DNA from: Escherichia phage WPEC5
Direction: 5' to 3' (one strand)
DNA length: 64,000 nucleotides
Sequence record: PV654397.1
The translations under genes and the position numbers were made by a program. Below, in pieces: positions 17,359 through 18,597 of this stretch; the stretch's first letter is position 1; each line of letters begins with the position of its first letter. The notes beneath the pieces are model-generated. The model had not been told where the DNA came from. It saw only the letters and a program-made list of their open reading frames with translations, and ran no database searches.

Positions 17359-18597
17359 TTATTTTTTACTGTACCATTGCATTTCACGGATATCTAATAG
17401 TACCTTCGTAGCCAACTTTATGTTTGGTTTCTTCGGTAGATGGGTCTTATGATACGCCACATTTCGGATGTAGTCAACCTTTTCGTTGAAATAATCCATA
17501 ACTTCTTGATACAACCACTTCCCGTTACGAATGTCCATCAACATAGCAGCATCCGGTCGGTGAACTTGGATGATACCAGTTTCAAGTGCTTCCTGTGCTG
17601 TATTCAGCAGCCTGATTGTATGCATAGCATGTTTGCAGTCATAACCGTGGTGTGATTCAAGAATAGCACGTTTGGCATTACGATTCTGCTTCCATTTGTG
17701 ATAACTCTTACGGTTCTCACTATTTTCTTTGTATTCCTTTTCATTGAATTTTACAATGAGTTCAGGACGAACTTTCAATTCTTCTGTAGTACGTTCTTTG
17801 TTGAAGTAACGTAGTGAACCATCAGCATTCACTGTACTTTCATTCGGGTTGATAATTACCCCAAAGATGTTTTCACCGTAATGGATTAGTTCATACCCTG
17901 AATTGTAATTCAATAAATTGAAATCACGATCTAATACTTTATCAGTACTATAATTATGTACTAAACGTACAAAATGATATTGTTTCAATGCTTGTGTTGA
18001 AACTAATTGTAATGAAGTATCACGCATGTATTTTTCAAAATCAATTTTTGTAGCATTGAATGGGTGAAGATTGGATTTATTCAAACGGTCAACCAAATAC
18101 TGCGGGAATGTATCATACATCCATGAAAGTACTTCGTCAACTGGATGTTCTTCTAAAATTTCATTTAGTTTACGTTCAGCAATTCGTTCCTTATCGAGCC
18201 AGCCGTGGTGATTAGACATACGCTTAACCTGATTGTATGCATATCCACTGTATGAGTGTGCAATCTTTGAACTCAATAATTGCTGATTGAATGAGCGTAG
18301 ATAGTCATAGATTTCAGTACTTTCTACGATGTGTTCCGGTTTAACCCATAGTGATTCAAGAATGTTTGGGTTAGCTTCAGTATACAGACTTAAGTACTGA
18401 TTGATTTCATAAAATTTAGTATCTTCTTCAGAAGTATCTGAAACTTCCTTAACATTAAAAAAAGGAGTTAGGATATATTCTTTGTTTGCAAGGAAGATAC
18501 CACGATAATCTGTATCACTTTCTGGTGTGCTTGTGCCATACGCCTGTGAACCAGCTAAGTGTTTCACAATAGTTTGTTCTAGAAAATTGTTTTTCAT
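17359..18597 (-). CDS. pol-beta superfamily nucleotidyltransferase (412 aa)
   Basis: N-terminal GS-x10-DTD motif (GSQAYGTSTPESDTDYRG); rest alpha-helical, uncharacterised. Confidence 0.5.
   Translation of the reverse strand: MKNNFLEQTIVKHLAGSQAYGTSTPESDTDYRGIFLANKEYILTPFFNVKEVSDTSEEDTKFYEINQYLSLYTEANPNILESLWVKPEHIVESTEIYDYLRSFNQQLLSSKIAHSYSGYAYNQVKRMSNHHGWLDKERIAERKLNEILEEHPVDEVLSWMYDTFPQYLVDRLNKSNLHPFNATKIDFEKYMRDTSLQLVSTQALKQYHFVRLVHNYSTDKVLDRDFNLLNYNSGYELIHYGENIFGVIINPNESTVNADGSLRYFNKERTTEELKVRPELIVKFNEKEYKENSENRKSYHKWKQNRNAKRAILESHHGYDCKHAMHTIRLLNTAQEALETGIIQVHRPDAAMLMDIRNGKWLYQEVMDYFNEKVDYIRNVAYHKTHLPKKPNIKLATKVLLDIREMQWYSKK

Follow-up and report, generated by a model that had tools for sequence, protein, structure and literature searches.

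What is the 412-aa nucleotidyltransferase (NTase) of Escherichia phage WPEC5 for? The gene lies on the minus strand of a 64,000-nucleotide stretch of the phage genome (sequence record PV654397.1), and this whole stretch is called the window in the following. The open reading frame (ORF) runs from an ATG through 412 codons to a stop codon, and the protein begins with MKNNFLEQTIVKHLAGSQAYGTSTPESDTDYRGIF; its residues 16-30, GSQAYGTSTPESDTD, form the pattern GS-x10-DTD, as checked by translation. The first-pass annotation of the window, made from the letters alone, had read this motif as the mark of an uncharacterised DNA polymerase beta (Pol-beta)-type NTase. The motif is borne out by the translation, by 574 homologs and by a set of invariant residues, and the protein is indeed a Pol-beta NTase; the word "uncharacterised" did not hold, for this is an ordinary member of a named and recently characterised family (RlaP, PF10127), homologous to the T4 gene nrdC.11 and labelled "nucleotidyltransferase" already in several near-identical phage records. 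We propose, with a probability of roughly 60%, that WPEC5 RlaP is a template-independent NTase that restores nucleotides during tRNA repair, its activity, substrate and role being carried over from the bacterial homologs. The coordinates of the gene, its domains and its putative partners are collected in Table 1.

The profile searches that the first-pass annotation had suggested lead to the RlaP family. The sole significant Pfam match of the protein is PF10127 RlaP (E 3.8e-17; 63.3 bits, the cutoff being 23), an entry described as "RNA repair pathway DNA polymerase beta family"; the name stands for "RNA ligase-associating Pol-beta". In PHROGs, aa 3-411 match phrog_388, "nucleotidyltransferase" (E 2.7e-75). 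Among 5.8 billion proteins searched, 574 homologs reached E<=1e-3; PF10127 was present in all full-length homologs among the top 120 matches listed, a form of about 412 aa was found on contigs of about 350 kb, and a form of about 350 aa was 34-42% identical. With tblastn, 1,079 of 50,697 phage records were matched, Vequintavirinae at full length and 32-37% identity, T4 and T2 nrdC.11 over the N-terminal third. The same approach against plasmids recovered canonical bacterial RlaPs of Deinococcus gobiensis, Bacillus thuringiensis and Clostridium botulinum, and two D. gobiensis proteins and the 253-aa B. thuringiensis protein matched nearly the whole length of the PF10127 profile. Other profile collections are silent on the NTase: the NCBIfam scan gave nothing relevant, PADLOC gave no match at E<=1, and in Pfam neither the class II CCA-adding family PF01743, even at E<=1, nor any profile of cGAS/DncV-like nucleotidyltransferases (CD-NTases) matched the 412-aa protein.

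The PF10127 match pairs aa 14-131 of the protein with positions 25-144 of the 249 in the profile and goes no further, because an insertion of about 177 aa parts the two RlaP core domains. This was seen with an alignment of 24 homologs of 43-86% identity (alignment A1), which was used for conservation, for profile comparison by hhalign and for AlphaFold2. Against the upstream one of the two D. gobiensis RlaPs (99.3%, E 1e-20), aa 13-130 and 322-405 of the query were aligned; against the 253-aa B. thuringiensis RlaP (99.7%, E 8e-27), aa 7-131 and 309-404; the 335-aa RlaP of the C. botulinum phage-plasmid matched at 99.8%. In the comparisons with canonical RlaPs of 253-304 aa, aa 132-308 are left out. 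As judged from these alignments, aa 1-131 of the 412-aa protein (the NTase domain) and aa 309-412 (the helical domain) together make up an RlaP core that the insertion splits. The two core domains, together with the carboxylates of the GS...DxD...D pattern, are what WPEC5 RlaP has in common with the bacterial RlaPs, and RNA ligase and Pnkp are likewise encoded in the genome that carries it; the bacterial RlaPs measure about 250-300 aa and lack the inter-domain module of about 177 aa that brings the phage protein to 412 aa.

The residues expected to do the chemistry are conserved. G16, S17, D28 and D30 of the NTase motif are invariant across all 24 homologs of alignment A1, as are E58, D59, K61, E64 and the N76-P77-N78 triplet in the N-terminal domain. 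D59 is aligned by hhalign to an Asp of the B. thuringiensis, C. botulinum and T2 NrdC.11 proteins. We regard D28, D30 and D59 as the probable metal triad, because they are invariant and D59 is matched by Asp in these three distant RlaPs. Three strictly conserved aspartates have been described in PfRlaP, a bacterial member of the family (PMC12776372). The second half of the protein is no less constrained: W302, K303, N305-R306-N307, R310, D320, K322, H323, H326, R329, R347, D349 and R357 are likewise invariant in A1. The view that about 350 residues without recognisable motifs follow the NTase motif has therefore to be given up, as the last 100 aa or so are the conserved RlaP helical domain, in which D320, K322, H323, H326, R329, R347, D349 and R357 stand. 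This domain has a net charge of +5 and a HEPN-like helical-bundle fold. A HEPN RNase motif was considered for it and rejected; the only Rx5H is R310-x5-H316, and H316 is not conserved in A1. The gene as a whole is under strong purifying selection, as indicated by the low nonsynonymous against synonymous divergence from its copy in an 83%-identical relative, locus L006 (pN 0.109, pS 0.723).

The predicted structure agrees with this domain layout. The AlphaFold2 model made with alignment A1 has a mean predicted local distance difference test score (pLDDT) of 90.9 and a predicted template modelling score (pTM) of 0.79. Its N-terminal domain is alpha/beta, with strands at 9-15, 30-35, 51-54 and 60-64; a very long helix (112-150), small helices up to about 200 and a beta-rich region (210-284) follow, and a helical C-terminal domain (286-409) ends in a long helix (393-409). 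Foldseek against the Protein Data Bank (PDB) gave weak matches (E about 0.02, template modelling (TM) scores of about 0.2-0.3, identity 8-20%), and the best-scoring of them are Pol-beta NTases with helical C-terminal domains, namely ANT(4'), Hailong HalB, LinB, MNT and AadA, which supports the Pol-beta fold that the motif had suggested. CdnE (E 0.8, TM about 0.1) and terminal uridylyltransferases come further down the list, and GlnE and DrrA are also among the structural neighbours. No close solved structure was present in the PDB copies searched. Against BFVD, Foldseek found many phage "nucleotidyltransferases" of 230-345 aa that match over their full length with target-normalised TM scores of 0.6-0.77. 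In BFVD, parts of the 412-aa NTase recur with 99% identity in A0A2Z5HFQ2, which at 432 aa is longer than the query, and in A0A2Z5HJ75, which has 134 aa; this suggests that in a related phage genome the start was called differently or the gene was annotated as split or duplicated.

From sequence comparison, the insertion at aa 132-308 is the distinctive feature of WPEC5 RlaP. When aa 132-308 were searched with phmmer against 1.84 billion cluster representatives, 35 proteins matched at E<=1e-3, and every match falls inside an RlaP-like protein, at one and the same place. A separate origin of the module was therefore rejected, since it is found in RlaP-like proteins only; in the Pfam scan, no family matches it. 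The module has two parts. The first (aa ~132-201) is helical and acidic (net charge -4), and by A1 and phmmer it is confined to the Rak2/PBECO4-like jumbo-phage clade. The second (aa ~202-308) is a beta-rich subdomain with a helix, carries a net charge of +2, and is common to the clade of about 350-aa proteins found in Vequintavirinae such as 4MG, CR3 and Mydo and in many uncultivated phages. Members of that clade align to WPEC5 RlaP at full length with 32-40% identity, have all invariant residues and the beta-rich part of the insertion, and differ from it in lacking the helical segment of about 65-70 aa (aa ~134-201) and in their gene contexts, where either a CCA-HD enzyme or a gp32-UvsX...UvsW block is found. 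The insertion presumably alters substrate recognition.

The helical domain is also a site of intein-like insertion. Two homologs, P0121 (744 aa) and P0128 (682 aa), carry an insert of about 330 aa that begins with CYL and ends with QGN, and a LAGLIDADG domain was detected in that of P0128. The insert sits exactly between the invariant Asp (D320) and the next T/C of the motif D-[T/C]-K-H-A-M-H, which corresponds to 17635-17640 of the window, and this position implies that the motif is functionally critical. The WPEC5 copy is free of an intein and has Cys321 at the +1 position. Similarly long RlaP homologs (680-760 aa) are P0135, P0142, P0150 and P0092. A Rosetta-stone fusion was considered for homologs of about 680-760 aa and rejected, as the extra 330 aa or so are the intein-like insert with LAGLIDADG.

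Cleavage of tRNA is a widespread bacterial strategy against phages, and phages classically counter it by RNA repair, as with the Pnkp and Rnl1 enzymes of T4. RlaP has been proposed as a third component, with which such repair could succeed even after the nuclease has removed a nucleotide. According to two papers (PMC12776372, PMC7824862), Burroughs and Aravind chose the family name because the gene is linked to RNA ligases in operons. In the survey by Iyer et al., RlaP came out as the repair NTase found most often in jumbo phages, with a distribution that goes along with that of RNA ligases, and the authors predicted that it replaces nucleotides removed by RloC-like nucleases ahead of ligation (PMC7824862). 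A preprint of December 2025 describes two Pseudomonas RlaPs, PfRlaP and PaRlaP, which add one or two nucleoside monophosphates (NMPs), or deoxynucleoside monophosphates, to RNA 3'-OH ends, prefer Mn2+ or Co2+, and are inactive on DNA or protein, E. coli proteins not being labelled (PMC12776372). In the same work, when a cleaved-tRNA mimic was offered, bacterial RlaP favoured the 3' end of its 5' half, with the acceptor 3' end coming second. The enzyme labelled fragments but also intact tRNAs and rRNAs, and, when applied before ligation, it raised the aminoacylation of a tRNA missing one anticodon-loop nucleotide (PMC12776372).

Two lines of evidence make a role in tRNA repair the likeliest: bacterial RlaPs extend RNA 3'-OH ends, and the window encodes a Pnkp, an Rnl1 and a CCA-type enzyme. 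The analysis establishes family membership, conserved catalytic residues, a predicted fold and partner enzymes in the same genome. On this basis, the following sequence of events may be considered. First, a tRNA would be cleaved by a host anticodon nuclease or a similar RNase, perhaps with loss of a nucleotide as in the case of RloC. Second, the phage Pnkp would turn the ends into a 3'-OH and a 5'-phosphate. Third, RlaP would add one or two NMPs to the RNA 3'-OH by two-metal catalysis with D28, D30 and D59. Fourth, the phage Rnl1 would seal the break. The acceptor end would be handled by a separate CCA-type enzyme, encoded at 3201-4316, with which the phage is equipped for repair of the 3'-CCA by an enzyme of its own. 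The 64-kb stretch of WPEC5 holds a complete kit (Pnkp, Rnl1, RlaP and CCA enzyme) in which RlaP bears an extra module, and it would offer a reasonable system for testing nucleotide restoration and for probing the insertion. Regarding the functions listed in the first-pass annotation, RNA 3'-end modification is supported by the assignment to RlaP, whereas CD-NTase or signalling activity, for which PADLOC and Pfam give nothing beyond RlaP, and protein nucleotidylylation, given that RlaP labels no protein in vitro (PMC12776372), find no support.

Genes for enzymes of RNA ends are found near RlaP in relatives, which speaks for this reading. The survey covered 80 viral loci. In the Rak2/PBECO4-like clade, the syntenic block around the NTase is kept, and a Thg1 gene lies about 3 kb upstream in 8 jumbo-phage loci. 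Four viral loci of the ~350-aa clade have Rnl1 3-4 kb downstream of RlaP, where it replaces UvsW, and 13 have a CCA-type enzyme within 1-4 kb. Among plasmids, D. gobiensis plasmid P2 (L087:3376-9020) carries a Hen1-RlaP-RlaP-Pnkp operon, and in the C. botulinum phage-plasmid the RlaP gene overlaps a CCA gene, with RtcB 3.5 kb off. An AbiEi/AbiEii pair is located just downstream of the D. gobiensis operon.

Several points weigh on the other side. The bacterial enzymes from which the activity is extrapolated can be aligned to only about 230 of the 412 aa, the Pfam RlaP model aligns to the N-terminal third of the NTase only, and the PDB yielded no meaningful sequence match, whether searched with the protein by itself or with the profile of its family. 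The authors of the preprint themselves term the in vivo role of RlaP "potential" (PMC12776372), and our literature search on nrdC.11 and phage tRNA-repair NTases returned no functional study of any phage member. The genes for PfRlaP and PaRlaP lie in rtcB-rlaP-rtcA operons of Pseudomonas, whereas the WPEC5 gene is in no ligase operon: ligase and kinase are 35-38 kb off, and its own run consists of unknown small ORFs, an acyl carrier protein (ACP)-like gene, spanins and an HNH endonuclease. The main caution to a purely RNA-repair reading is the DNA-replication context of the ~350-aa clade. In about 48 of 66 metagenomic loci of that clade, the order gp32 - UvsX/RecA - RlaP - u187 - UvsW - u166 - PolIII alpha is seen, where gp32 is a gp32-like single-stranded DNA-binding protein, UvsW a UvsW-like helicase, u187 and u166 are proteins of 187 aa and 166 aa, and PolIII alpha is present as a fragment (e.g. 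L021:7733-15685; loci L021-L083).

T4 NrdC.11 has been placed in cluster 5 of the RlaP family (PMC12776372). Like WPEC5 RlaP, the NrdC.11 proteins of T4 and T2 are phage-encoded PF10127 proteins, homologous to it at both ends (for T2 NrdC.11, BLASTP 5e-13 in the N-terminal and 4e-05 in the C-terminal part; hhalign 97.5%, E 8e-12, aa 8-375), and these phages also have Pnkp and Rnl1, with the repair genes of T4 likewise far from nrdC.11, as in WPEC5. They differ in being 27-28% identical over the alignable parts, in a middle region (336 against 412 aa in total) that is not confidently alignable, and in belonging to another sequence cluster. By these alignments WPEC5 RlaP and NrdC.11 are homologous, strict orthology not being established. 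The window from about 1100 to 17400 and the T2 locus (L002; tk.4-tk-rI.-1-nrdC.11) have in common a phosphatase, a thymidine kinase, a DUF5856 gene and the NTase, where the rI.-1/DUF5856 "starvation-inducible regulator" gene of the window is found at 13180-13620. These common genes indicate that the WPEC5 segment is related to the T4-like early region.

Among other explanations, repair of the acceptor end deserves to be weighed first. RlaP would here work with the CCA enzyme or back it up, re-extending 3' ends that host nucleases or toxins have trimmed. A CCA(-HD) enzyme is encoded 1-4 kb from RlaP in 13 loci of the ~350-aa clade, a gene for a CCA tRNA nucleotidyltransferase overlaps the RlaP gene in the C. 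botulinum phage-plasmid, WPEC5 itself carries a CCA-type enzyme, and the labelling of full-length tRNAs and rRNAs by the bacterial enzyme points the same way (PMC12776372). Class II CCA enzymes (PF01743) are, like RlaP, template-independent members of the Pol-beta superfamily that act on RNA 3' ends and serve phage tRNA repair. Their C-terminal domains are unrelated to that of WPEC5 RlaP. Against this explanation, the PF01743 domains of WPEC5 are in the separate gene, which lies 13 kb away and already covers this job, and the bacterial enzyme favours the end left by cleavage over the acceptor end (PMC12776372). We consider acceptor-end repair unlikely.

An equally doubtful idea is that the phage RlaP subfamily with a module of 110-177 aa, intein-targeted at D-[T/C]-K-H, has a distinct substrate or partner rather than simply restoring a wobble nucleotide. 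Candidates for such a role may be RNA or DNA 3' ends in the gp32-UvsX-RlaP-UvsW-PolIII alpha module, or a counter-measure to a specific tRNA-targeting defence. If this were true, the jumbo-phage RlaP would count as a functional variant new to its family.

It is less probable still that the module-bearing phage subfamily has moved to DNA replication and recombination, where it would extend or tag RNA primers or recombination 3' ends. The order of the replication block is conserved although the neighbours of RlaP are only about 50% identical between loci; the B. thuringiensis homolog adjoins nrdEF and thioredoxin, and T4 and T2 nrdC.11 lie in the nrdC-tk region; and inteins, typical of replication and repair enzymes, are found in some homologs. 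Yet gene order kept within one phage lineage can reflect common descent and not function, the 4 loci with Rnl1 in place of UvsW belong to that same lineage, bacterial RlaP rejects DNA acceptors (PMC12776372), and no replication gene is nearby in the WPEC5 window.

An anti-defence signal enzyme, either a HalB-like synthase whose oligo-dA would keep the channel of a Hailong system closed or a CD-NTase-like synthase or decoy, is very improbable. The structural likeness of WPEC5 RlaP to HalB is that of the generic Pol-beta fold, as the Foldseek scores given above indicate, CdnE comes no closer than E 0.8, PADLOC and the CD-NTase families of Pfam give no match, and profiles put the protein firmly in RlaP. 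HalB is an NTase of about 217 aa that is paired with the HalA channel gene and makes oligodeoxyadenylate. Hardly credible is nucleotidylylation of a protein or small molecule in the manner of MNT, GlnE, DrrA or the aminoglycoside NTases, with the ACP-like protein as a possible target: ANT(4'), LinB, AadA, MNT, GlnE and DrrA are structural neighbours and the ACP-like ATG follows the NTase stop by 10 nt, but that adjacency is not conserved, no HEPN partner gene was found among the neighbours by Pfam or PHROGs, and bacterial RlaP labels no E. coli protein (PMC12776372). The MNT of HEPN-MNT systems is an NTase of about 100-150 aa beside a HEPN toxin (Rx4-6H), in contrast to the 412-aa WPEC5 RlaP, and KNTase/ANT(4'), LinB, MNT and HalB have no sequence-profile relationship to it; antibiotic, protein and free oligo-dA substrates are unsupported. 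Restoration of nucleotides in cleaved tRNA is thus the reading we prefer for WPEC5 RlaP.

Table 1. Features of the RlaP gene of WPEC5 and of related or neighbouring elements (positions in the window)
Feature	Position	Strand	Basis
RlaP-family (PF10127) nucleotidyltransferase gene, 412 aa + stop	17359..18597	-	ORF, Pfam, PHROGs, hhalign 99.3-99.8%
N-terminal Pol-beta NTase domain, aa 1-131	18205..18597	-	Pfam aa 14-131, hhalign aa 7-131 and 13-130, modelled strands
hG[GS]-x10-DxD motif, G16 S17 ... D28 T29 D30, with two of three predicted metal-binding carboxylates	18508..18552	-	Translation, invariance
D59, probable third catalytic carboxylate, in E58-D59-T-K61	18421..18423	-	Invariant; ligand role inferred
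Insertion between the RlaP core domains, aa 132-308	17674..18204	-	hhalign gap, A1 gap pattern, phmmer
C-terminal RlaP helical domain, aa 309-412, HEPN-like helical-bundle fold	17362..17673	-	
D320-x-K322-H323-x2-H326-x2-R329 motif of the helical domain	17611..17640	-	Invariant columns; intein point in some homologs
T4-type Pnkp, inferred end-healing partner	53638..54570	-	Pfam HAD_PNKP 5.8e-43 and AAA_33 1.1e-12; polynucleotide kinase in vB_Ec-M-J
T4 Rnl1-type RNA ligase, inferred sealing partner	55393..56535	-	RNA_lig_T4_1 4.6e-14 and T4_Rnl1_C 2.6e-16; annotated RNA ligase
CCA-adding-type tRNA nucleotidyltransferase	3201..4316	-	PolyA_pol 4.8e-18 and PolyA_pol_RNAbd 2.1e-09; annotated tRNA nucleotidyltransferase
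ACP-like protein, 138 aa, phrog_18343	16932-17348	-	ATG at 17348
Sigma-70-like promoter TTGACG-17-TATAAT, 11/12, consensus match only	20622..20650	-	Sole intergenic gap upstream
Terminator-like hairpin overlapping the promoter	20640-20661	-	Pattern match
Terminator-like hairpin after the HNH gene, 13-bp stem + T run, consensus match only	15541..15570	-	

The 4 kb around the NTase gene are 99% identical to Escherichia phages EC.P1, fEgEco12, WPEC3, Ecwhy_1 and vB_Ec-M-J and about 84% identical to PBECO4-type phages; the close relatives by this match are jumbo phages of 350-385 kb in the genus Asteriusvirus (PBECO4-like). In phage CMSTMSU, two places match the same 4-kb query. The genes for Pnkp, Rnl1 and the CCA-type enzyme lie 13-38 kb from the NTase gene, and in the matching annotated genome a Sir2 gene and two NUDIX genes are annotated in the region with the repair genes. 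The 64-kb window contains no tRNA genes.

The NTase gene itself belongs to a run of nine genes on the minus strand, made up of three paralogous small ORFs, a 133-aa ORF, the NTase, the ACP-like ORF, two spanin-like ORFs and an HNH gene. Its ATG overlaps the stop codon of the upstream 133-aa ORF (ATGA). The promoter and the hairpins of Table 1 suggest by their placement that they bracket an early transcription unit of about 5 kb that contains the NTase; the case for this unit is one of position, because the promoter and terminator scan gave site counts no higher than in shuffles.

The first-pass annotation had pointed to the adjacent ACP-like gene, and in the window the two genes are adjacent, the NTase stop codon occupying 17359-17361 and the ACP-like ATG, preceded by a GAGGA Shine-Dalgarno sequence, following 10 nt downstream. 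In relatives, the distance between the two genes is 3.5 kb in the PBECO4-type L006 and 2 kb in Serratia phage BF. We draw no functional link between the NTase and the ACP-like gene, because their adjacency is specific to this subgroup. Such a link was also rejected in view of the ACP-like protein itself, which aligns to helix II of E. coli AcpP and has a Trp (DWLDWLE) in place of the phosphopantetheine-attachment residue Ser36 (DSLDTVE). By this substitution, it may not be a true carrier protein.

Further upstream, the three tandem paralogs of 169, 173 and 188 aa occupy 18998-20598 on the minus strand, just upstream of the 133-aa ORF; they match one another in pairwise BLASTP at 8e-06 and 9e-16, and the Pfam scan gave no match for them. 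Beyond these, two minus-strand genes encode proteins of 909 aa (20669-23398) and 195 aa (23415-24002) that are hypothetical in relatives and end in a near-identical motif, (V)(T/S)RF(L/N)TYRPSTT.(R/K)GS..P.STG.P...GT..W, which suggests a shared C-terminal module in fibre-like proteins.

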